64,000 nt of DNA. It comes from Patescibacteria group bacterium. Its GTDB lineage: Bacteria > Patescibacteriota > Patescibacteriia > Magasanikbacterales > GWA2-37-8. The notes below the pieces were generated by a model, which was not told the DNA's origin, searched no databases, and saw nothing but the letters and a program-made list of their open reading frames with translations. The position numbers and the translations under genes are program-made. Location: positions 32,001 to 96,000 of the forward strand of contig SCQK01000013.1 of NCBI GenBank assembly GCA_004321885.1, in the 5' to 3' direction. This document shows, piece by piece, positions 13,739 through 53,412 of this stretch (position 1 is the first letter of the stretch; the number at the start of each line of letters is the position of its first letter).

Positions 13739-13757
13739 AAAATTTGCTGTAAAGCGC

Positions 13758-13835
13758 GGCTGAATGTGTTCGCAGCGCCTTATCCCGACTCAGTCGGGAT
13801 GGCCGAGGCCTCGCGGCCGAGGAAAGCGAGAACGC
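13758..13835. repeat. Structured intergenic element with nested inverted repeats (GCGCGGCTGAATGTGTTCGC...GCGAGAACGCATTCAGCCGCGC, CCCGACTCAGTCGGG, CGAGGCCTCG).
   Basis: Read directly. Lies between wecB-like and gltX, both minus strand. Its core resembles the family-1 palindrome core. Confidence 0.5.
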
Positions 13836-13837
13836 AT

Positions 13838-14575
13838 TCAGCCGCGCGAACTTATCAATAAATATGTAAATCTTATAGTCGCGTTAAAGATACGTTCAAA
13901 CCGTCGCGGCTGCGTCAACAACCGGTACATCCATTCTAACCCAACTTTACGCATCAGTAAAGGCGCGCGCTTTACTTTTCCAGAAAGATAATCAAAGGCC
14001 CCGCCCACGCCCATGGCTATTTTTACCGACGGCATTTTTGACAAATTTTCGTGTATCCATTTTTCCTGTTTGCCCATCCCAAAAGCGACAAAGAGAATAT
14101 CCGGCCGTGATTGATTAATTAGTTGAATCGTTGAATTGTCAACTGATTGGAAATTCTCGCTAATAGCCGGTCCCTTATCGCACCCTGCTATTTTCAAATT
14201 CGGAAACTGTTGTTTCAAATTTTCCGCCGCTTTTCTGACAACTTCGTCCTCACCGGAGCCGAGCAAATACACGCTCCTCCCCTCTTCGGCCGCCACTTGA
14301 CACAACTCCAGCATAAAATTCGCGCCGGTGATGCGCGGCGCTTTTGTCCCTGCTAAACGGCAAGCCAACGCCAATCCAAACCCATCGCACAAGTTCAAAT
14401 CGCCAGCGTTCAAAATATTTTTAAAATTTTCATCTTTTTGCGCCTTCACCGCCATCTCGGGATTGGGCGTAAATATCTTGTGCTGCTTGCCTATCAAGTC
14501 ACGCAAAAACTCACGCGCCCTCTCGCGCGCTCCTTCCAAATCCATCTCATCAACTTTCACTCCCAAAATCATCAT
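13838..14575 (-). CDS. WecB/TagA/CpsF family glycosyltransferase.
   Basis: Sequence typical of UDP-ManNAc transferases (LNLCDGFGLALA, MGVGGAFDYLSGKVKRAP). Confidence 0.75.
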   Translation of the reverse strand: MMILGVKVDEMDLEGARERAREFLRDLIGKQHKIFTPNPEMAVKAQKDENFKNILNAGDLNLCDGFGLALACRLAGTKAPRITGANFMLELCQVAAEEGRSVYLLGSGEDEVVRKAAENLKQQFPNLKIAGCDKGPAISENFQSVDNSTIQLINQSRPDILFVAFGMGKQEKWIHENLSKMPSVKIAMGVGGAFDYLSGKVKRAPLLMRKVGLEWMYRLLTQPRRFERIFNATIRFTYLLISSRG

Positions 14576-23969: not shown

Positions 23970-24032
23970 TTCGTTCGCTGTCATTCTAGCCCCTGCCTAC
24001 CGGCAGGCAGGCGCGAGCAGGAATCCCACACT

Positions 24033-26425: not shown

Positions 26426-27352
26426 ATGACTATTAGCACAATATTTTTTGGAACACATAATTTTGCGGCGAAAATTTTGGCAGAGCTTATCAAAAACGGC
26501 TCTTTTGACATTACACTGGCAGTCACCCAGCCGGACAGACCGGCGGGAAGAAAACAAGACCTGGAAATTCCGGCCGTGAAACTTTTAGCCGAAAAAAACA
26601 ATATTCCGGTCGCCCAACCGGCCGGTTTGTCATTGCGAGGAGTAATCCCTTTTCCTGATTTCTATGACCTGAACATCCTCTGCCAATACGGAAACATAAT
26701 CACCAAAGAAATTTTAGACAAATCAAAATACGGTTCAATCAATGTCCACCCTTCGCTATTGCCAAGATACCGCGGGGCCTCACCCATCCAATCCGCGCTC
26801 GTAAATGGCGAAACCGAAACCGGCGTTTCCATAATTTTGATGGATGAGGAGCTTGACCATGGCCCGATTTTGGCGCAAAAAAAAATGAACATTGGCGATG
26901 ATGATAATTTTGTTTCTTTGAGCGCGAAATTGTCGTATCTATCCGCCCCTCTTTTGGTAAATACGGCCCTTGATTTTGTAAACGGAAAAATTACTCCCGG
27001 GCCACAAAACCACGACCAAGCGACTTTTTGCAAACAACTCTCGCGCGAGGATGGTAAAATTGATTTTAATAAATCCGCCAAAGAAATTTACAATCAGTGG
27101 CGCGGCCTCGCGCCGTGGCCCGGGGTTTGGGCAAGCTGGGAAAACAAACGTCTCAAATTTATTAATATCAGCCCCCTTCCCCTTTATAAGGGGGATGTGG
27201 GGAGGGGGTATGTAAGGGGGCACAAACTCATCATCGCCTGCGCCCAAGGCGCTATTGAAATTTTAGAACTCCAACTTGAAGGAAAAAAGCCCATGGTCGC
27301 GGCCGCGTTTATAAACGGCTATGGCAAAATAAACGGCGCTATTTTACGCTAA
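26426..27352 (+). CDS. fmt: Methionyl-tRNA formyltransferase. Carries an in-frame palindromic insertion at 27169-27220.
   Basis: Formyltransferase N-domain (SINVHPSLLPRYRGASPIQ). The insertion encodes SPLPLYKGDVGRGYVRG. Confidence 0.9.
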   Translation: MTISTIFFGTHNFAAKILAELIKNGSFDITLAVTQPDRPAGRKQDLEIPAVKLLAEKNNIPVAQPAGLSLRGVIPFPDFYDLNILCQYGNIITKEILDKSKYGSINVHPSLLPRYRGASPIQSALVNGETETGVSIILMDEELDHGPILAQKKMNIGDDDNFVSLSAKLSYLSAPLLVNTALDFVNGKITPGPQNHDQATFCKQLSREDGKIDFNKSAKEIYNQWRGLAPWPGVWASWENKRLKFINISPLPLYKGDVGRGYVRGHKLIIACAQGAIEILELQLEGKKPMVAAAFINGYGKINGAILR

Positions 27353-31160: not shown

Positions 31161-32596
31161 ACCGGCTGTTTTTTTAATTTAGCTAAAAAGCCGAAGAGTA
31201 TTTGTTTGGTCAAACCGCCGCTCGCAAATAGTAGCGCGCCGTAAACAATCGCTCCAATGGGAATGGCGAGCAAAAAATGGACTCTTTGCGCCAAAAAATA
31301 AACCGCCATACCCATGACCAGGGCCGGCCATAAAGCGGCAAAGGCCTGCCGCGATATGTTTTTTATATTTAGCTCCGCGTACTTACGGGAAAAATAATAG
31401 CCCCCAACGCACAGCAAAATATTGCTGGCCAGCGCGGCAACGGCGGCGCCCGTAATTCCGATTCTCGGCAGCATTATAAGATTCAAAATCAAATTCAGCC
31501 CCAGGGCCGCGGCCAAAAGGCCGGTCTGGGTTCGCTGATGATTGGTGGCATTGATGAGCGCTCCGGTAATTAAAGACAAATAGCCGAATATCAAACTGAA
31601 CATTAAAATCTTTAATGGCCAAACAGACGGCGCGTACTCGGCTCCATAAATTAATTTAATGATCGGCTCGCCCAGCACAAACAAACCAATGGACAATGGG
31701 AAAACAGCATAGAATAAATAGCGCCACGATTTTTCAAACAGCGGCCCGATTAAGGCGCGCTCGCCCGTGTGCAAATTGGAAAAAACCGGATACACGCTGG
31801 CCGACAGGGCAATGGGAATAAATTGAAAAGCAAAGGTAATTTTGTATGGCACGCTCCACCAGCCCAACTCTTTGGCCGAAAGCATCTTGGACATCAGCAA
31901 AGAATCGCTGTATGAATACAGCCGCCCGATAATGCCGGCCAGGGCGAACGGCAGGGCCGCGATAATAAAAGTTTTGAAAACGGCTTTGTCAAAAGCGAAC
32001 AAGTACCGCAAGCCGTAAAATTTTCTGCCGGCAACAGCCAGATAGGTAAAATTCAGCAAACTGGGAATGGCGTAGGCGATTATCAGCCACATCAGCGGCC
32101 AATGCAGAAGCAGGGCGGCCGTGCCCACAATCAGCGTGATGAACTGCGCGGCCACGATGGCGATTGATTCAAAAATCAAATTCTGGCGCGCGCGGAAAAA
32201 ACTGTTGAACACCGACTGTAAACTGTCAAAAAACATCGTCACGCCAGAAATGTAAACCAAAAGCCTGGTCTCGGCCGCATACCCCAAAATATTGATAAAA
32301 AAAATCGCCAACAAATAAGCGGCGACGCCGAAAAGCGCCTTGGTCCACAATATCGTATTAACGTAATTTTGCGCGTTGCTCGTGTCGCGCGCGACCTCGC
32401 GGGTAAGCACCGGTGAAAGCCCGAAATCCGCCACCACGGTAAAAATAGTGGTAAAAGTGAGCGCGAAAAAATATTGTCCGGTATTGGCCGCCCCTAAAAG
32501 GCGGGCAACCAAAATAAAATAAAAAAAAGAAATTATTTTTTGAAGCACCGAAGCCGCCGTCAAAAACGTGGTATTTTGCGCGACCGTATAAGACAT
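31157..32596 (-). CDS. Polysaccharide flippase (Wzx/MOP superfamily).
   Basis: 479 aa with about 12-14 TM helices, located in the glycosyltransferase cluster. Confidence 0.65.
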   Translation of the reverse strand: MSYTVAQNTTFLTAASVLQKIISFFYFILVARLLGAANTGQYFFALTFTTIFTVVADFGLSPVLTREVARDTSNAQNYVNTILWTKALFGVAAYLLAIFFINILGYAAETRLLVYISGVTMFFDSLQSVFNSFFRARQNLIFESIAIVAAQFITLIVGTAALLLHWPLMWLIIAYAIPSLLNFTYLAVAGRKFYGLRYLFAFDKAVFKTFIIAALPFALAGIIGRLYSYSDSLLMSKMLSAKELGWWSVPYKITFAFQFIPIALSASVYPVFSNLHTGERALIGPLFEKSWRYLFYAVFPLSIGLFVLGEPIIKLIYGAEYAPSVWPLKILMFSLIFGYLSLITGALINATNHQRTQTGLLAAALGLNLILNLIMLPRIGITGAAVAALASNILLCVGGYYFSRKYAELNIKNISRQAFAALWPALVMGMAVYFLAQRVHFLLAIPIGAIVYGALLFASGGLTKQILFGFLAKLKKQPV

Positions 32597-32676
32597 AGAA
32601 CCACTAATCTATATTCACTAATCACACTAATTGATGGCCACTTGTTACAATTTTACAGGAATTTGGACAAAAAAAC

Positions 32677-32699
32677 AACCCCGACTAAGTCGGGGTTGT
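32677..32699 (-). terminator. Hairpin terminator downstream of rpsI (AACCCCGACTAAGTCGGGGTT). Its core matches the family-1 palindrome.
   Basis: Perfect 9-bp stem read directly. Confidence 0.5.
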
Positions 32700-35404: not shown

Positions 35405-35438
35405 GTGTCATTCCCCCGACTAAGTCGGGGGAATCCAA
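35405..35438. repeat. Family-1 palindromic repeat, copy B. Intergenic between rpsK and rpsD.
   Basis: GTGTCATTCCCCCGACTAAGTCGGGGGAATCCA. Confidence 0.85.
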
Positions 35439-36881: not shown

Positions 36882-37349
36882 TCAAGGGGCGGCTGGCAAA
36901 TTATCCCCATGATTTCCGCTGTCATTCCCGCCCGCGAGTGGAAATCCATTTGCGTACACCCAGTATTTATACAATAAAAAATTCCAGGCCACGGCCACGG
37001 CAATATTTGCCACGCGCGCCAGGCGATAATCCAGGCCGAATTTTTCGTTAAAAAACCACATCCAGCCAATGGCGATGATGTAATTCAAAAACATTACCAC
37101 CAAAAAACGGGCCGCCTGCGTGGCGGCGCATCCGCGGGCTCCAAAAGACCAGTATTTATTCAGCAAAAAAACATAAGCCACCATAAACACCTGGTTTATG
37201 GCCACGGCCGCAACCGGACGCAGACGGGCATATTCTTTGAGCAAATAAAGCGAGCCGACGTCCAAAAACAAGGCGCTAAGCCCCACCAAAAAATATTTGG
37301 CAAACTGCGCTCGGCTGGCCCACAGTTTTTTTATAATATCTTTTATCAT
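36882..37349 (-). CDS. GtrA-family small membrane protein.
   Basis: Four TM helices; AKYFLVGLSALFLDVGSLYLL is GtrA-like. Start taken at MIKDI. Confidence 0.5.
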   Translation of the reverse strand: MIKDIIKKLWASRAQFAKYFLVGLSALFLDVGSLYLLKEYARLRPVAAVAINQVFMVAYVFLLNKYWSFGARGCAATQAARFLVVMFLNYIIAIGWMWFFNEKFGLDYRLARVANIAVAVAWNFLLYKYWVYANGFPLAGGNDSGNHGDNLPAAP

Positions 37350-39202
37350 TCTAATATCGCCTTTATCCTCCGCACGCCGGCGCTCACTGCCTCTTCTTTG
37401 ATAATGCGGAATTTTCCCAGCACACCCGTGTGCTCCACGTGCGGTCCGCCGCATATTTCGCGGCTAAAACATTGCGAGTTCTCGTGGGCTTCAACTTTGG
37501 CTTGCGAGTCGCCCACGGAATAGACCTTGACTTTTTGCCCGTAACGTGCTTCAAACAATCCAATGGCCCCCAATTTTTTGGCCTGTTCCACGCTCATTTC
37601 TTCAAAAACCACCGTATAATCGCGCTTTATGGCATAGTTGACAAGTTCTTCAATTTGTGCTTTCTGATTTTCAGTCAGCTTCTCGGGATGGCTAAAATCA
37701 AAGCGCAAACGCTCGGCCGTAATATTGCTGCCGCGCTGTGTCACATGCTCGCCCAACACCTTGCGCAGGGCGGCGTGGAGCAAATGCGTGGCCGTGTGGT
37801 ATTTTATGGACATCTCGCCGGTATCAGCCAGCCCGCCCTTGAATTTTTGCTCGGCGCCGGCCCGAGAAAGCTCCTGATGCTTTTTCATTTCCTCGTTAAA
37901 TCCTTTGATATCAACACTTAATCCTTTTTCCTCCGCCAATTCTATCGTCAGTTCAATCGGGAAGCCATAACTTTGATACAGGTCAAAAGCATCTTTCGCG
38001 GAAATTATTTTTCCGCCGTCAGTCACATTGTCATTCCCCCGACTAAGTACGGGGGAATCCAGTAACTCCTCAAATTTCGCCATTCCTCGTTCAATCGTAT
38101 TCCTAAATTTACTCTCCTCTTTTGCCATTTCGTTTATCACAAACTCGCGGTTGCGTTCCACTTCCGGATAAACATCGCTAAAAATTTTGATTGTTTCCTC
38201 GGCCATGGCCGAGGAAAAATTTTCTTTTATTCCCAGCAGTCGTCCGTGGCGCACGGCGCGGCGAATCAAACGTCTCACCACATACCCCTGGTCCACGTTG
38301 CTTGGCGCTATCCCCTTGTCATCGCCCATGATCATGGTGGCGGTACGCAAATGGTCGGCGATAACGCGCATTGATTTGGTGACTTCCGCGTTTTCCACGT
38401 ATTCGCGCCCGGAAATCTCTTCAATTTTTTGTATCAAAGGCCAAAAAGTGTCCACCTGAAAAACATCGGCAAAGCCGTTTAAGGCGACCAGCGTGCGCTC
38501 CAGACCCATGCCAGTGTCCACGTTCTTTTGTTTGAGGGGCGCGTAACTACCATCAACCAGTTTATTGTACTCCATGAAAACGTCGTTCCAAATTTCCAGC
38601 CAATTGTCTTCGTCGTTTTCCGGGTTGCTCTTTTTGGGTGGAAGCTCAGACTCCCCCATCCAATAAAACATCTCCGTGTCCGGACCGCACGGCCCGGTGG
38701 CTCCGGCCGGCCCCCACCAATTATTTTCTTTCGGTAAAAAACAAATTTTGTGCTCTGGCACGCCCGCTTCTTTCCAAATTTCGGCCGATTCTTCGTCGCG
38801 CTCGGCTGTTTTGCCTCCCTTAAACACGGACACGGCCAATTTCTTCGGGTCCAGCCCCAGCCATTTTTGGTCCGTTAAAAATTCCCAACTCCACTGTATC
38901 GCTTCCTTTTTAAAATAGTCACCCAGCGACCAGTTGCCGAGCATTTCAAAAAAAGTATCGTGGCGGTTGTCCCCCACTTCGTCAATATCCTGCAAGCGCG
39001 CGCATTTTTGCGCGCTGGCCAAACGCTTGCCCTCGGGATGTTTTTCGCCCAGTAAATACGGCACCAGCGGGTGCATGCCGGCGGTGGTAAACAAAACCGT
39101 CGGATCGTTTTCCGGAACGAGCGAGGCCGACAAAATCACCTTGTGTCCTTTACTGACAAAAAAATCCAAATATTTCTGCCGCAGTTGTTTTGATATGAGC
39201 AT
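37346..39202 (-). CDS. alaS: Alanyl-tRNA synthetase, short form (618 aa) lacking the C-terminal C-Ala domain. A family-1 repeat sits in-frame.
   Basis: N-terminal catalytic core (FTTAGMHPLVPY, GNWSLGDYFK) and editing-domain HxxxH (HTATHLLHAAL). The repeat encodes DSPVLSRGNDN. Confidence 0.9.
   Translation of the reverse strand: MLISKQLRQKYLDFFVSKGHKVILSASLVPENDPTVLFTTAGMHPLVPYLLGEKHPEGKRLASAQKCARLQDIDEVGDNRHDTFFEMLGNWSLGDYFKKEAIQWSWEFLTDQKWLGLDPKKLAVSVFKGGKTAERDEESAEIWKEAGVPEHKICFLPKENNWWGPAGATGPCGPDTEMFYWMGESELPPKKSNPENDEDNWLEIWNDVFMEYNKLVDGSYAPLKQKNVDTGMGLERTLVALNGFADVFQVDTFWPLIQKIEEISGREYVENAEVTKSMRVIADHLRTATMIMGDDKGIAPSNVDQGYVVRRLIRRAVRHGRLLGIKENFSSAMAEETIKIFSDVYPEVERNREFVINEMAKEESKFRNTIERGMAKFEELLDSPVLSRGNDNVTDGGKIISAKDAFDLYQSYGFPIELTIELAEEKGLSVDIKGFNEEMKKHQELSRAGAEQKFKGGLADTGEMSIKYHTATHLLHAALRKVLGEHVTQRGSNITAERLRFDFSHPEKLTENQKAQIEELVNYAIKRDYTVVFEEMSVEQAKKLGAIGLFEARYGQKVKVYSVGDSQAKVEAHENSQCFSREICGGPHVEHTGVLGKFRIIKEEAVSAGVRRIKAILE
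38028..38063. repeat. Family-1 palindromic repeat, copy C, in-frame inside alaS.
   Basis: TTGTCATTCCCCCGACTAAGTACGGGGGAATCCAG. Confidence 0.85.
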
Positions 39203-39941: not shown

Positions 39942-41000
39942 CTATTTTTTCTTCAACGTCGTTATCGGCCTACTTTGAGTAATGTATACTGTACCGCTTT
40001 CCATGGCCCATTCAATATCACAAGGGAAACCATAGTGTTGCTCAATTTTCTTGCACACCTTGGCCACTTCAATAATTTCTTTGCCGGTCAGCTTCTGCTT
40101 ACCCCCCTCTTTCTCACTCAACTCAATCCATTTGTTGGAGTCTCTCCCCTTTATAAGGGGAGAGTTAGTGAGGGGTAATTTCGCTTTCACCAACTTCTTC
40201 GTCTGTACTCCAACATTTATATCTACAATACTCATTTCGCTTTTGGAAACAATATAACTGTCGGGTGTAATCTGGCCGCTCACAATCGCTTCGCCCAATC
40301 CAAACCCGGCCTCAATAATCATCTGGTCGGGGTCTTCAGTAACCGGGTGCACAGTAAAGGCGATGCCCGAAATTTCCGACTGCACCATTTTCTGCACCAC
40401 TACCGCGACCGAAACATAATGGTCAATCAGTTTTTTTTCGTGACGATAAAAAATCGCGCGGGGGGTGAAAAGCGAAGACCAGCATTGCTTAACTTTTTCA
40501 ACAACGTTAACGCGCGTGGTGTTCAAATAGGTTTCCAGCTCCCCGGCCCAACTGGCCACGTCGCTGTCCTCGGCCGTAGCGCTGCTTCTCACCGCCACCA
40601 GGTTGTCATCCTGAACTTGTTTCAGGATCCCCGTTCGCCGTCTGTCATTCAGACCCCGCTTAGCGGGGGAGGAATCCCTCCCGCCCAACTCATCAAACGC
40701 CCCCAATATCTCATTCTCCAAATCTTTCGGCATGGGCGTGTCGTGTATCACATCGCGCAAAACATTACTCGCCTTGTCCACGCTGTTGGTGTCTTCGGGA
40801 TCCACGTCAGCCAATCGCGCCTCAATCTCTTCTTTCAATTTCGTTTCCTCAATAAATCTGTCAAACGCGCTCGCCAATACCACAAAACCCGGCGGCACAC
40901 GCAGTTTCGCTTTAGTCATCTCGCCAAGCGAAGCGCCCTTCCCGCCCGCGCTGGCCACATCTTTCTTGGAAATATCCTTAAAAAATTTTATGTGAGGCAT
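39942..41000 (-). CDS. Stand-alone PEP-synthase/PPDK N-terminal ATP-grasp (nucleotide-binding) domain protein. Carries two in-frame palindromic insertions.
   Basis: VASAGGKGASLGEM...VAVRSSATAED...CDIEWAMESGTVYITQSRP is collinear with the N-domain of the ppsA at 53413..56379 and stops at the domain boundary. Insertions sit at 40143-40177 (family 2) and 40607-40632 (family 3). Confidence 0.8.
   Translation of the reverse strand: MPHIKFFKDISKKDVASAGGKGASLGEMTKAKLRVPPGFVVLASAFDRFIEETKLKEEIEARLADVDPEDTNSVDKASNVLRDVIHDTPMPKDLENEILGAFDELGGRDSSPAKRGLNDRRRTGILKQVQDDNLVAVRSSATAEDSDVASWAGELETYLNTTRVNVVEKVKQCWSSLFTPRAIFYRHEKKLIDHYVSVAVVVQKMVQSEISGIAFTVHPVTEDPDQMIIEAGFGLGEAIVSGQITPDSYIVSKSEMSIVDINVGVQTKKLVKAKLPLTNSPLIKGRDSNKWIELSEKEGGKQKLTGKEIIEVAKVCKKIEQHYGFPCDIEWAMESGTVYITQSRPITTLKKK
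40143..40177. repeat. Family-2 palindromic repeat (TCTCCCCTTTATAAGGGGAGAGTTAGTGAGGGGT), in-frame in the ATP-grasp ORF.
   Basis: Shared with 54371-54409; a variant sits at 27169-27220; a related core lies at 34730-34765. Confidence 0.8.
40607..40632. repeat. Family-3 palindromic repeat (CATCCTGAACTTGTTTCAGGATCCCC), in-frame in the ATP-grasp ORF.
   Basis: Identical to 62591-62616 and near-identical to 63041-63066. Confidence 0.85.
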
Positions 41001-51004: not shown

Positions 51005-52186
51005 TCAAGCAATCACTCCCCCGCCCAAACATTCACCTTTAAGATAAAATACCGCGAACTGACCCGGGGTGACGGCGCGTTGGGGGTGAGTGAAAGTAAC
51101 TAAAGGGAGGGAAACAGTGCATCTCTGCAAAGGTTGACGGTGACGCAGGCGCACCTGGCATTTTAGCGGGAAATTGGGTGTGTTTCCACTTATCCAATTT
51201 ACGTCTTTGACCCTTGCTTCCATACTGTACAGCATATCGCTTTTCTCGTCGCCGACAATCAGTTCGTTCTTTTTTATATTCTTACCGACAACAAAGAGAG
51301 GCAACGCGCTGGATTCCCCCGTACTTAGTCGGGGGAATGACAAACTGATACGTTGGCCGATGGTGTAAAACGCCAGGCCATCGTGCTGGCCCACGACTTT
51401 ACCCCTCTCTCGCCACCGCCGCGAGGCGGGGCCCCGCCGTGGCGGTGGCTCTCCCCTTGTAAAGGGGAGAGAGAGCACTATGTTCCCGGGTTTGAATTTT
51501 ATCTTTTTCATCAAAAATTCTTTCATCGGCACTTCGCCGATGAAACAAATGCCCATGCTTTCTTCTTTTTCCGCCGTGGGCAAGCCGAATTTTTTTGCCA
51601 GGGCGCGCACCTGTGGTTTGGCATACTCACCGATGGGAAACAAAACGTGGCGCAGTTGTGCTTGAGATAATTGATTCAAAAAATATGTTTGGTCTTTATT
51701 GAGATCTTTTGACTGCAAGAGGTGCAGAACCCCACCCCCCTTTCGTTCCCCCTTTATTAAGGGAGGAAGAAACGCGTAGTGTCCAGTCGCTAATTTATCA
51801 AACCCTAACGCACGGGCTTTATCCAGCCAGGCGCCAAACTTGATGAATTTATTGCACAAAACATCCGGATTGGGCGTGCGGCCGGCCTTGTACTCGCTAT
51901 ACATGTAATCCAAAACATCGCGCTTGTATTTGCGCGTAAAATCCAGCTTCAAAAGTTTAATGCCCAGTTTGGCGGCCACGCGCAAGGCGTCGCGATAATC
52001 GCCGGTCCAACAGCGCGATCCCACCCCCCCTTCGCCCCCCCCTCTGGCATGAGGGGATATTTTCTCATCATAGTTCACCATGAACGCGCCGCTTACGTTA
52101 TATCCTTGCTTAACCAAAAGAGCGGCGGCAACGGACGAATCCACGCCGCCGGACATGGCGACTAAAATTTTTTGCTTTTTTTTCAT
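51005..52186 (-). CDS. mnmA: tRNA-specific 2-thiouridylase MnmA with several in-frame palindromic insertions.
   Basis: ILVAMSGGVDSSVAA PP-loop. Gly/Pro/Arg-rich insertions at 51310-51345 (family 1), about 51410-51478, about 51740-51770 and about 52020-52060. Confidence 0.85.
   Translation of the reverse strand: MKKKQKILVAMSGGVDSSVAAALLVKQGYNVSGAFMVNYDEKISPHARGGGEGGVGSRCWTGDYRDALRVAAKLGIKLLKLDFTRKYKRDVLDYMYSEYKAGRTPNPDVLCNKFIKFGAWLDKARALGFDKLATGHYAFLPPLIKGERKGGGVLHLLQSKDLNKDQTYFLNQLSQAQLRHVLFPIGEYAKPQVRALAKKFGLPTAEKEESMGICFIGEVPMKEFLMKKIKFKPGNIVLSLPFTRGEPPPRRGPASRRWRERGKVVGQHDGLAFYTIGQRISLSFPRLSTGESSALPLFVVGKNIKKNELIVGDEKSDMLYSMEARVKDVNWISGNTPNFPLKCQVRLRHRQPLQRCTVSLPLVTFTHPQRAVTPGQFAVFYLKGECLGGGVIA
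51310..51345. repeat. Family-1 palindromic repeat, copy D, in-frame inside mnmA (encodes LSFPRLSTGESS).
   Basis: The reverse complement equals copy C. Confidence 0.85.
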
Positions 52187-52253
52187 AACAATATAATACC
52201 ACACAAAACAAAAACTGCCAGCCTTGCGGCCGGCAGTTTCTTGTTTGCAGTAA

Positions 52254-52565
52254 TTACCTATCGCGCCTGGCCCGCAGACATTCTCTGCAGTAAACCGGCT
52301 TGTCGCCGGTGGGCTGGAAGGGCAACTCGGTGATCTTGCCTCCGCACTGGGCGCAGGTCAAGTCCACCTGGTACATCTGGCGCGGAGCGCCAAACGAGCG
52401 TCCGCCGCCGCTCGGGCGGGTCTGGCGGTACGCGCGATTGCATTCATTGCAATACACGGGTCTGTCGCCGGACGGCTGGAAGGGCAGCTGTGAAATATGG
52501 GTCCCGCATTTGCCGCAGGAAAGGTCCACATCGTACATCTGCCTAGTGCTGTTGTCAAAAGCCAT
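52254..52565 (-). CDS. Small protein with two tandem zinc-ribbon repeats (CGKCGTHISQLPFQPSGDRPVYCNEC and CAQCGGKITELPFQPTGDKPVYCREC).
   Basis: Internal duplication read directly; paralogous to the motif in 19719..20228. Confidence 0.5.
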   Translation of the reverse strand: MAFDNSTRQMYDVDLSCGKCGTHISQLPFQPSGDRPVYCNECNRAYRQTRPSGGGRSFGAPRQMYQVDLTCAQCGGKITELPFQPTGDKPVYCRECLRARRDR

Positions 52566-52674: not shown

Positions 52675-52703
52675 ATTATATCACAAAAGCCTGATTTTGT
52701 CAA
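52675..52703 (-). promoter_or_regulatory. Strong sigma70-like promoter on the minus strand (TTGACA-17-TATAAT) driving the zinc-ribbon gene.
   Basis: Reverse complement reads TTGACAaaatcaggcttttgtgaTATAAT. Confidence 0.5.
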
Positions 52704-52881: not shown

Positions 52882-52910
52882 TTGACATTTGGATAAAAAT
52901 TTTATACAAT
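52882..52910 (+). promoter_or_regulatory. Sigma70-like promoter (TTGACA-17-TACAAT) upstream of the tRNA-like fragment and GIY-YIG ORF.
   Basis: aTTGACAtttggataaaaattttaTACAATg. Confidence 0.5.
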
Positions 52911-52929
52911 GAAGCCAACAATTTAACTT

Positions 52930-52984
52930 GGGTCGGTAGTTCAACTGGTTAGAGCATCCCGACTGAGTCGGGAAAGTTGCGGGT
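52930..52984 (+). pseudogene. tRNA-like 5' fragment, from acceptor to the 5' side of the T-stem. Its body is identical to tRNA-Asp, but the anticodon arm is TCCCG-ACTGAGT-CGGGA.
   Basis: GGGTCGGTAGTTCAACTGGTTAGAGCA is shared with tRNA-Asp. No T-loop or 3' acceptor follows it. The anticodon arm resembles the family-1 palindrome core. Confidence 0.55.
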
Positions 52985-53245
52985 ATGGAGGTAATTTTAT
53001 ATTATATTTACAGTAAAAAACTGAATAAATACTACTTAGGAAAAACCAATGATTTGGAGCGACGTTTTATAGAGCATAATAACGGTGAAGAAATTTTTAC
53101 CAGAACTGGTATTCCATGGAAATTAGTTGGATTTATTAAAGCCAGCGCGAAGATAATTAGTAAATTAGAGTATAAACTAAAAAAAGCAAAAAATCCAAAA
53201 TACGTTTATTGGTATTTCAATCAACACGGAACTGTATTGGAATAA
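52985..53245 (+). CDS. Small GIY-YIG nuclease-domain protein (YhbQ/UPF0213-like).
   Basis: ILYYIYSKK...YYLGKTNDLERRFIEHNNG covers the GIY, YIG, Arg, Glu and Asn positions; 86 aa. Confidence 0.6.
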   Translation: MEVILYYIYSKKLNKYYLGKTNDLERRFIEHNNGEEIFTRTGIPWKLVGFIKASAKIISKLEYKLKKAKNPKYVYWYFNQHGTVLE

Positions 53246-53250
53246 TGAGC

Positions 53251-53324
53251 GGGTCGGTAGTTCAACTGGTTAGAGCACTGCCCTGTCACGGCAGAAGTTG
53301 CGGGTTCGAGTCCCGTCCGACCCG
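53251..53324 (+). tRNA. tRNA-Asp (anticodon GTC).
   Basis: Hand-folded cloverleaf. Acceptor GGGTCGG/CCGACCC, U8, D-arm, anticodon stem CTGCC/GGCAG with loop CTGTCAC, T-loop TTCGAGT, discriminator G. No encoded CCA. Confidence 0.85.
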
Positions 53325-53346
53325 CTTATTATTCCATCAAAGCAAG

Positions 53347-53405
53347 CTGGTTAGAGCATCCCGACTGAGTCGGGAAAGTTGCGGGTTCGAGTCCCGTCCG
53401 ACCCG
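53347..53405 (+). pseudogene. tRNA-like 3' fragment, from D-loop to the 3' acceptor. It complements the 5' fragment at 52930-52984 and has the same variant anticodon arm.
   Basis: CTGGTTAGAGCATCCCGACTGAGTCGGGAAAGTTGCGGGTTCGAGTCCCGTCCGACCCG. The 5' acceptor strand is missing. Confidence 0.55.
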
Positions 53406-53412
53406 CATAAAA

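Follow-up and report, generated by a model that had tools for sequence, protein, structure and literature searches.

The 64,000-nt stretch of DNA analysed here (hereafter the window; positions 32,001–96,000 of contig SCQK01000013.1, assembly GCA_004321885.1, Patescibacteria group bacterium) contains a transfer RNA (tRNA) locus in which an intact tRNA-Asp gene and a short open reading frame (ORF) for a GIY-YIG nuclease family protein are enclosed by two partial copies of the same tRNA, designated 5'X and 3'X, in both of which the anticodon arm is replaced by a palindrome. This locus represents a conserved genetic module and is not a private accident of the genome. The module comprises a gene of the Slx1/UPF0213 type, encoding a GIY-YIG protein of ~85 amino acids (aa), situated in a tRNA transcription unit and flanked by arm-substituted partial tRNA copies. 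The present analysis establishes its anatomy, its recurrence, the family of the protein, the purifying selection acting on the gene, the concerted evolution of the fragments, the occurrence of amplified and decayed variants and the enrichment of hairpins in its vicinity. What appears to be new is a nuclease gene that lives in, and presumably remodels, tRNA loci with arm-substituted fragments on cellular chromosomes.

The initial annotation, made from the sequence alone, had placed a promoter, the two fragments, the ORF and the tRNA at coordinates that all agree with the sequence (Table 1). The first fragment, 5'X, consists of tRNA positions 1–26, the palindrome and positions 44–54, breaks off at T54 and directly abuts the ATG of the ORF (52985), while 3'X comprises positions ~16–26, the palindrome and then the complete stretch 44–73. 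In both fragments TCCCGACTGAGTCGGGA replaces exactly the 17-nt anticodon arm, as the annotation had proposed, and the bodies of the fragments are indeed identical to the local tRNA-Asp: 5'X matches it at 27/27 nt on the 5' side of the palindrome and over 11 nt on the 3' side, and 3'X matches over 12 nt on the 5' side and at 31/31 nt on the 3' side. The segment common to both fragments, CTGGTTAGAGCATCCCGACTGAGTCGGGAAAGTTGCGGGT, measures 40 nt and not the ~38 nt estimated earlier. The ORF is followed after 5 nt by the tRNA-Asp gene and the latter after 22 nt by 3'X, which ends 8 nt from the stop codon of a convergent gene encoding phosphoenolpyruvate (PEP) synthase.

The sole tRNA called by ARAGORN and Rfam across the window is tRNA-Asp(GTC), with its 3' end at 53324/5, the discriminator base G73 and no encoded CCA; neither 5'X nor 3'X is called as a tRNA by these tools, permissive thresholds included, and the search returned no second normal tRNA in the window. 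The middle tRNA-Asp is the only real tRNA gene of the unit. The earlier suggestion that the fragments together make one 74-nt tRNA holds insofar as the sequence joined in silico adopts a cloverleaf fold (-33.7 kcal/mol, z = -3.3), but it has a 7-bp stem with a 3-nt loop where the anticodon arm should be, and no contiguous tRNA is called. The anticodon UGA (with C33) that had been read from this arm is meaningless, because any of the four bases can stand at the centre of the palindrome among relatives, in which the arms are invariant; a suppressor or odd-anticodon tRNA was rejected on the grounds of this variation and of the 3-nt loop. Within one locus the 5' and 3' fragments carry an identical central base.

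A single promoter would transcribe 5'X, the nuclease ORF, tRNA-Asp and 3'X as one unit, and similar promoters precede the 5' fragment in four related loci (L008, L022, L032 and L055). The pairing between the tRNA-Asp leader and trailer has counterparts in about half of the related tRNA-Asp loci, where the sequence differs by lineage and the pairing is kept; the helix measures 5–14 bp across loci (L001, L009, L018, L033, L040 and others) and 13 bp in the window, and for the 32 other tRNAs of the same loci the leader–trailer extension amounts to just 0–2 bp. The 13-bp helix could be a processing stalk of the RNase III type or the inverted ends of a tRNA cassette.

Table 1. Features of the tRNA-Asp locus and dispersed palindrome copies, in window coordinates
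Feature	Position	Strand	Remark
Sigma-70-type promoter TTGACA-17-TACAAT	52882..52910	+	11/12 consensus positions matched
5' partial tRNA-Asp copy (5'X), 55 nt	52930..52984	+	tRNA positions 1-54
17-nt palindrome TCCCGACTGAGTCGGGA, first copy (in 5'X)	52957..52973	.	replaces anticodon stem-loop positions 27-43
86-aa minimal GIY-YIG gene	52985..53245	+	Pfam PF01541, no added domain
tRNA-Asp leader, overlapping the ORF stop codon	53238..53250	+	pairs with trailer 53324-53336, extending the acceptor helix by 13 bp
Intact tRNA-Asp, anticodon GTC	53251..53324	+	ARAGORN; Rfam RF00005, 66.8 bits
3' partial tRNA-Asp copy (3'X), 59 nt	53347..53405	+	positions ~16-73
Palindrome TCCCGACTGAGTCGGGA, second copy (in 3'X)	53359..53375	.	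central G as in first copy
Dispersed copies of the palindrome core	914-938; 13782-13800; 32675-32699; 35410-35434; 38033-38058; 51313-51338		

Recurrence in dozens of independent assemblies rules out that the arrangement is an artefact of assembly. Related loci were collected by a protein-based scan, with an alignment of four sequences as query and one genome per species, and by a DNA scan of metagenomes for the palindrome within its D-stem context; as the metagenome loci were picked by the exact palindrome, the loci found through the protein are the only unbiased ones. Every locus derives from a metagenome assembly, and the taxonomic labels of several metagenome-assembled genomes (MAGs) may be wrong. 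The layout was found at more than 25 independent Patescibacteria loci around tRNA-Asp, tRNA-Lys, tRNA-Arg and tRNA-Ile, and relatives of the window locus show the same module and not a plain tandem tRNA pair. A database protein identical to the ORF product is annotated as 'GIY-YIG nuclease family protein'. In Candidatus Magasanikbacteria (L001), a 60%-identical protein is encoded in a locus that again consists of 5' fragment, GIY-YIG ORF, tRNA-Asp and 3' fragment and has a gene for PEP synthase close by, like the window; the fragments of this locus have gained additional palindromes, and their acceptor strands (GGGTCGG/CCGACCC) are mutually complementary, unlike the enclosed tRNA-Asp (GGACCGG).

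The protein scan yielded 11 loci, in 10 of which the GIY-YIG gene abuts a tRNA or tRNA fragment, most of them in the order palindrome-bearing 5' fragment, GIY-YIG gene, intact tRNA. The partner is tRNA-Asp (L007, L009–L011), tRNA-Lys (L012, L014, L017), tRNA-Ser (L015) or tRNA-Leu (L016), and L008 holds Asp-like 5' fragments on a contig without an intact tRNA. The DNA scan returned 33 loci, with the GIY-YIG gene beside the palindrome in 21 and the start of the ORF visible at the contig end in 4 more; 7 of the 33 consist of a hairpin-bearing tRNA fragment without the gene. Fragment boundaries were determined by a script in which matches are extended from the palindrome in both directions, and they were consistent across loci. 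The 5' fragments comprise the whole 5' half of the local tRNA (27/27 nt at most loci), the palindrome and 5–16 nt from position 44, and break off in the T arm between positions 49 and 60; the 3' fragments run from the D-arm region to the 3' end of the tRNA unless cut by the contig end or diverged. The 17-mer, with its variable central base, occupies the equivalent place in more than 25 related loci. It substitutes the arm in copies of tRNA-Asp, tRNA-Lys, tRNA-Arg(ACG) and tRNA-Ile, both flanks fitting the local tRNA, and the palindrome is found in fragments of Asp, Lys, Arg, Ile, Ala and Val tRNAs.

The association extends beyond Patescibacteria. Nine further loci, reached solely via the protein, belong to a Cloacimonetes MAG, Runella (Bacteroidota), unclassified genomes of 0.7–4.5 Mb and others, and at one of them a neighbouring gene encodes a Bacteroidota-type secretion-tail domain. 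In these nine loci the GIY-YIG gene adjoins genes for tRNA-Asp, His, Ala, Thr, Lys or Gly or unassigned tRNA fragments, and the partial tRNA copies carry a TCCCGA…TCGGGA palindrome instead of the anticodon or T arm (examples are TCCCGACAGGTCGGGA, TCCCGACTCGTAGAGTCGGGA, TCCCGAAAGCATTCGGGA, TCCCGATAGCTATCGGGA and TCCCGTTTTATAAACGGGA). Among all protein-only loci, 18 of 19 have a tRNA or tRNA fragment beside the gene and 13 of 19 have a TCCCG-N3-14-CGGGA hairpin at a distance of at most 400 nt; the hairpin density near the gene amounts to 1.23 per kb versus 0.11 per kb in distal sequence, an 11-fold enrichment.

On profile and structure comparisons, the protein is assigned to the UPF0213/Slx1-like stand-alone clade, without accessory domains, and would not be a Seg/I-TevI homing endonuclease. 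Residues 4–73 of the 86-aa product match Pfam PF01541 (E = 1e-9, 39 bits against a cut-off of 22.6), and its catalytic residues are intact: Y6, Y17, G19, R27, H31 and E62 are invariant in 12 sequences with 35–61% identity to the query. The AlphaFold2 model (mean predicted local distance difference test score, 95) has the beta-beta-alpha-alpha-beta-alpha-alpha layout of the GIY-YIG fold, and the top Foldseek matches are 1zg2, Slx1, I-TevI and the N-terminal domain of UvrC. A profile of close relatives matches 1zg2 (BH0048) at E = 2.9e-14 and 1ywl (EF2693) at E = 1.5e-9, eukaryotic SLX1 at ~2e-4 and, weakly, I-TevI at 1.7e-3. The score for TIGR01453 (group I intron endonuclease) is far below threshold, with 18.7 bits against a cut-off of 56, and the protein has no PHROG match. 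A phage origin was rejected, as the viral contigs searched lack a match to either the palindrome pattern or the protein and PHROG likewise gives none. More than 3,000 clusters matched the profile at E <= 1e-8, and many homologues are found, in the manner of repeats, on contigs of very small size.

The protein shares family, fold, size and the lack of added domains with members of UPF0213/COG2827 (E. coli YhbQ, B. subtilis YazA, 1zg2 and 1ywl), a widespread group with two solved structures and without an assigned function, for which the link to tRNAs and hairpins offers a testable hypothesis on substrate and biology. In the 2006 phylogenomic analysis of GIY-YIG proteins, stand-alone Slx1-like proteins were described as the minimal form, with no mention of a tRNA link (PMC1564403), and neither tRNA genes nor tRNA fragments or hairpins are mentioned as linked to UPF0213 in PMC1564403 and PMC7017083. 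The literature searched contains no description of small GIY-YIG genes among arm-substituted tRNA fragments, although its coverage is incomplete and absence is not proof.

The ORF is old, mostly vertically inherited and strongly constrained, because its divergence tracks that of ribosomal protein L20 (mean pairwise identity 55% versus 59%, r = 0.70; nine Asp-type loci, 36 pairs) and because the ratio of non-synonymous to synonymous substitution (dN/dS) is low, at 0.08–0.15, when dS is high, at 0.7–1.9 even between the closest pairs, with silent sites near saturation. Asp-linked and Lys-linked sequences form separate clades in the phylogeny of the GIY-YIG proteins, and many Asp-type loci share neighbours, namely infC-rpmI-rplT upstream and ppsA nearby. 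The 5' fragments follow the lineage-specific variants of the acceptor stem and D loop of their own tRNA; the combination of an invariant palindrome with fragments that track the local tRNA points to ongoing gene conversion or selection.

The loci differ in copy number and in completeness. Tandem arrays occur in L008, L027, L036, L054 and L058, the last with five 336-nt units, and the pair L059 and L060, from two samples with identical flanks, has one versus two units of the GIY-YIG gene and a hairpin-bearing 3' tRNA-Ala fragment, which is consistent with recent duplication or collapse. The order of gene and tRNA is reversed in L035 and L047. The ORF is frameshifted in L032 and L038, internally deleted in L019 and missing at the syntenic site in L018, all with persisting fragments, and it is also absent from L034 and L041, which have kept theirs. 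Extra palindromes are present in the D arm of the 5' fragments of L001, L007, L008, L009, L019 and L032. The presence of the 3' fragment varies, with none in L011, L014, L022, L039, L044, L048 and L050.

Our preferred explanation, to which we give an even chance, is that the locus houses a long-resident, homing-endonuclease-like nuclease cassette in which breaks and their repair create and homogenize the partial tRNA copies, the hairpin being the cis site. The GIY-YIG gene, selfish or semi-domesticated, would encode a nuclease that cuts the hairpin or the tRNA-like DNA adjacent to its own gene. Recombinational repair from a neighbouring tRNA copy would generate partial duplications and keep them identical to the local tRNA, sometimes amplifying or deleting units, as SegB does in the tRNA clusters of T-even phages. 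The hairpin, as the cis site of the element, may also stop the extra copies from being tRNAs, and selection on the presumably essential tRNA-Asp would preserve the middle copy and tie the cassette to the tRNA. The nuclease activity, its target and its causal part in the rearrangements are what we infer from these patterns. The cassette is favoured because of the SegB precedent and because the fragments are broken in the T arm or the D-arm region, both among the best-conserved parts of tRNA genes.

SegB, a GIY-YIG enzyme encoded in the tRNA cluster of T4/T6, cleaves tRNA genes internally at the preferred sequence RAWTSGAAC (PMC13096335), the reverse complement of which, on our reading, matches the sequence coding for the T loop. 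It drives segmental amplification of tRNA genes and segB, with junctions at microhomologies (PMC13096335; PMC2330249), and its toxicity is abolished by truncation of the C-terminal part (PMC13096335). The present module resembles this system in that a GIY-YIG gene is lodged among tRNA genes, 5' fragments break in the T arm and arrays of fragment and GIY-YIG gene exist. Unlike SegB, which is phage-borne, belongs to the I-TevI/Seg clade and has an extra C-terminal part, the protein described here is chromosomal and consists of 86 aa that form the catalytic domain only; it is absent from the viral contigs searched, its inheritance is largely vertical, and SegB loci feature neither a conserved hairpin nor partial tRNA copies with a substituted arm. 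The module would extend the phage paradigm of a nuclease that remodels tRNA loci to cellular chromosomes, including the tiny genomes of Patescibacteria.

An intact tRNA with displaced partial copies that form direct repeats around an insert is also typical of integrative elements that target tRNA genes (attL/attR), and in L016, L017, L059 and L063 the order is tRNA, insert, 3' fragment. Unlike such elements, the module has no integrase, its insert of ~270–360 bp contains nothing but the nuclease ORF and, in some loci, a tRNA, fragments lie on both sides, and a palindrome takes the place of an arm in the displaced copy. An integrase-borne island was rejected: direct repeats are present, but the insert consists of the GIY-YIG ORF and the tRNA, with neither a tyrosine nor a serine recombinase. 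The module lacks a feature that defines each of the systems compared with it, namely the DNA-binding domain of SegB, the integrase of tRNA islands and the HUH enzyme of systems of repetitive extragenic palindromes (REPs) and REP-associated tyrosine transposases (RAYTs). A symmetric staggered cut at the palindrome centre, with duplication of the target site, fits the window (20 + 19 nt) and L010 (26 + 24 nt) and does not fit L032, L043 and L047.

As to how the locus arose, the initial annotation offered three readings. An insertion carrying a GIY-YIG gene and a tRNA copy, with a duplication, describes correctly that the gene lies between partial copies of the local tRNA. Overwriting of the anticodon arm of a tRNA-Asp duplicate by the palindromic element agrees with the exact replacement of the arm. 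Each of the two holds in part, and the arrangement, seen around several tRNA types and in several phyla, is that of a conserved module. The third reading, that tRNA-like structures seeded the palindrome family, found no support, the core occurring also in unrelated surroundings such as terminator-like hairpins, in the alaS/mnmA element, at the tip of a 23S helix, and in fragments of different tRNAs. Derivation of the palindrome from native arms was rejected: inspection by eye of the tRNA-Asp anticodon arm, T arm and acceptor stem gave nothing convincing, and the same 17-mer sits in Lys, Arg and Ile fragments.

Several observations weigh against the nuclease cassette. The 86-aa protein lacks a DNA-binding domain such as site-specific homing endonucleases require, and it belongs to the Slx1/UPF0213 clade and not to the I-TevI/Seg clade. 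The syntenic site (infC-rpmI-rplT … ppsA) and the L20-like divergence in Patescibacteria fit a stably inherited, possibly host-useful gene better than an often-transferred parasite. Homing leaves unexplained both the intactness of the hairpin on the two sides and the replacement of the arms of different tRNAs by the same 17-mer with locally matching flanks. Hairpin-bearing fragments without any remnant of the GIY-YIG gene exist (L018, L023, L024, L034, L041, L046), and further copies of the palindrome core are spread over other parts of the genome.

One alternative is a domesticated or housekeeping nuclease that processes RNA, or the hairpins or branched DNA of a genome rich in palindromes, and has a tRNA-derived regulatory or stabilizing leader, an explanation that we consider unlikely. 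The leader might be an autoregulatory substrate mimic, as the leader hairpins of rnc and rne are, and the partial copies might be by-products kept alike by gene conversion. Vertical descent at a syntenic site, divergence like that of L20 and the dN/dS of 0.08–0.15 suit a nuclease of this kind, and so do a hairpin that is invariant while silent sites are saturated and that always lies between promoter and ORF, and an ORF stop situated in the tRNA leader helix or, in relatives, in the tRNA or the hairpin loop, which suggests that processing of messenger RNA (mRNA) and tRNA is coupled. The relatives YhbQ and YazA, moreover, belong to the Slx1 family and are encoded by ordinary genes of the chromosome (PMC7017083). 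A housekeeping role is difficult to reconcile with lineages that have lost or broken the ORF and kept the tRNA, with multiple copies per genome, tandem arrays and copy numbers that differ between samples, or with the repeat-like occurrence of many homologues on very short contigs, and a leader function leaves the 3' fragments and the fragments without a GIY-YIG gene unexplained.

The dispersal of the palindrome raises the alternative of a system similar to REP/RAYT, in which the GIY-YIG protein is the dedicated nuclease that spreads TCCCGA…TCGGGA hairpins and the arms of redundant tRNA copies, being hairpins themselves, are preferred landing sites; we regard it as rather improbable. The palindrome core, CCCGACTNAGTCGGG, occurs in 6 copies in the window versus 0.01 expected by chance, the dispersed copies of the core include those in frame in alaS and mnmA, two hairpin copies flank the gene in the window and in many relatives, and at six loci the D arm of the 5' fragment has accumulated additional palindromes. 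The 11-fold enrichment of hairpins near the gene across phyla points in the same direction, and a conserved stem with a loop of variable length fits recognition of a folded hairpin. The module resembles REP/RAYT systems in having a nuclease-type gene enclosed by a short GC-rich palindrome with further copies across the genome, and its in-frame copies within essential genes are reminiscent of Rickettsia palindromic elements (RPEs), for which we know of no enzyme. Unlike RAYTs, which are HUH/Y1 enzymes, the protein is of the GIY-YIG type, and unlike the module, REPs are extragenic and have no tRNA link. Spreading of hairpins does not account for the tRNA adjacency in 18/19 loci, including loci without TCCCG hairpins, the window contains one GIY-YIG gene versus eight hairpins (two flanking the gene and six further), and to our knowledge strand transfer is not a property of GIY-YIG enzymes. 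In its broader form, as a new mobile or semi-domesticated system based on the GIY-YIG fold, whose dedicated enzyme recognizes a folded hairpin, uses tRNA arms as landing sites and is the source of both arm-swapped tRNAs and genomic palindromes, the proposal is unlikely. If it were true, the large UPF0213 family would gain a function and the system would account for short palindromes across reduced genomes, among them those inserted in frame in alaS and mnmA.

An RNA-level device, in which the fragments are a split tRNA-like RNA or processing stalk that encloses the nuclease mRNA and tRNA-Asp in the manner of a giant intron or an RNase III stalk, or else decoy or antitoxin RNAs, is very improbable. 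The minimum free energy fold of 52925–53410 pairs the fragments in a 16-bp X:X duplex (-153 kcal/mol, z = -6) and draws acceptor, D and T arms from both of them, the complementary acceptor strands of the L001 fragments differ from those of the tRNA between them, and tandem arrays of 5' units upstream of the gene (L027, L035) resemble type III antitoxin repeats. However, two palindrome copies pair automatically, which is no sign of selection, the 3' fragment is missing from many loci, the ends of the 5' fragments vary and often leave the T stem incomplete, Rfam finds no ribozyme at gathering or permissive thresholds, and we know of no bacterial enzyme that joins such tRNA halves. Split or permuted tRNA genes exist in Nanoarchaeum and red algae. 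In Patescibacteria, group I introns have been described at position 35/36 of tRNA-Asp and tRNA-Asn (PMC13011429). The present locus is similar in that a tRNA-like sequence of the same phylum and isoacceptor is interrupted and its halves could pair in RNA; in contrast to interrupted and split tRNAs, the halves overlap by 40 nt, the arm has no anticodon and a complete tRNA-Asp lies inside. A group I intron or ribozyme between the halves was rejected, since Rfam gives no match at gathering or permissive thresholds and the 362 nt concerned (52985–53346) are taken up by the ORF, the tRNA-Asp and short spacers.

Passive decay, with tandem tRNA pseudogenes hit by an unrelated palindromic mini-element and trimmed by deletions and the GIY-YIG gene an incidental passenger, would suit the genome-wide palindrome family and the hairpin fragments without the gene beside tRNA-Arg, tRNA-Ile, tRNA-Ala and tRNA-Val, but it is hardly credible given that gene, tRNA fragment and TCCCG hairpin recur together across phyla in protein-only loci, that hairpin and ORF are, respectively, invariant and under purifying selection where neutral DNA is saturated, and that the fragments follow the local tRNA instead of degrading.

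The module also bears on genome assembly and annotation. Contigs often end at modules, so the modules evidently break assemblies. The tRNA-like fragments can mislead annotation: the only contiguous full-length sequence of the arm-substituted type, at 2812–2886 of L012 and identical in L020 and L028, is labelled tRNA-Stop with the anticodon tta by ARAGORN, which means that at least one has been called a suppressor and that some suppressor tRNAs annotated in Patescibacteria genomes may be pseudo-tRNAs of this kind. In several relatives the GIY-YIG frame ends inside the next tRNA (TAG, positions 8–10) or in the hairpin loop of the 3' fragment, with C-termini such as …CWLEHPD* and …SSGHPVL*; such overlaps are seen at the junction of gene and tRNA in L007, L010, L012 and L050, at ~5240–5270 in L047 and at the unit junctions of L058. 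Where the stop codon lies inside the tRNA, cleavage by RNase P at the tRNA 5' end would strip it from the mRNA.

The module may be the source of short palindromes inserted in essential genes in these bacteria. A palindromic element of 26 nt, ATTCCCCCG(A/T)ACT.AGT.CGGGGGAAT, contains the core of the hairpin of the tRNA fragments and lies in frame in alaS (37346–39202, - strand) at 38033–38058, where it encodes DSPVLSRGND in AlaRS, and in mnmA (51005–52204, - strand) at 51313–51338, where it encodes FPRLSTGES in MnmA; both insertions resemble RPEs. Near-identical copies are situated at 35410–35434, in the rpsK/rpsD gap, and at 914–938, upstream of greA. A longer inverted repeat, cgcggctgaatgtgttcgc … gcgagaacgcattcagccgcg (13755–13850), is centred on the copy at 13782–13800 and looks like a larger element similar to miniature inverted-repeat transposable elements. 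An uptake-signal-like half-site was rejected, the heptamer CCCGACT being counted 16 times, 12 of them from the six palindromes, versus 6.9 expected.

Several families of short palindromes seem to have inserted into the genome. Other GC-rich palindromes are found in the window at 27172–27194, 40142–40164 and 51449–51471, and also at 23992–24011. One further family has the form CTCTCCCCTT(T/G)TA(T)AAGGGGAGAG, and its copy in mnmA fits odd peptides of the 'SPLYKGR' type in the ORF translations; another palindrome, CCTGCCTACCGGCAGGCAGG, also follows the hairpin in the unrelated locus L024. At 1199–1215 of L046, the 17-mer TCCCGACTTAGTCGGGA tips a helix in the 23S ribosomal RNA gene, presumably at the position of the short helix-25 hairpin of E. 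coli, where intervening sequences are known to occur, and the 16S–23S spacer of the same locus holds a hairpin-bearing 5' fragment of tRNA-Ile.

In L009 (1–389 and 530–802) a second, more distant GIY-YIG gene of the UPF0213 type is located ~140 nt downstream of the transfer-messenger RNA gene, at the end of which no obvious duplication was seen. Upstream of the module in the window, a perfect divergent promoter, TTGACA-17-TATAAT with an upstream TG (52675–52703, - strand), faces a gene encoding a 103-aa double zinc-ribbon protein (52254–52565), and the intergenic segment 52566–52929 is therefore a divergent promoter region.

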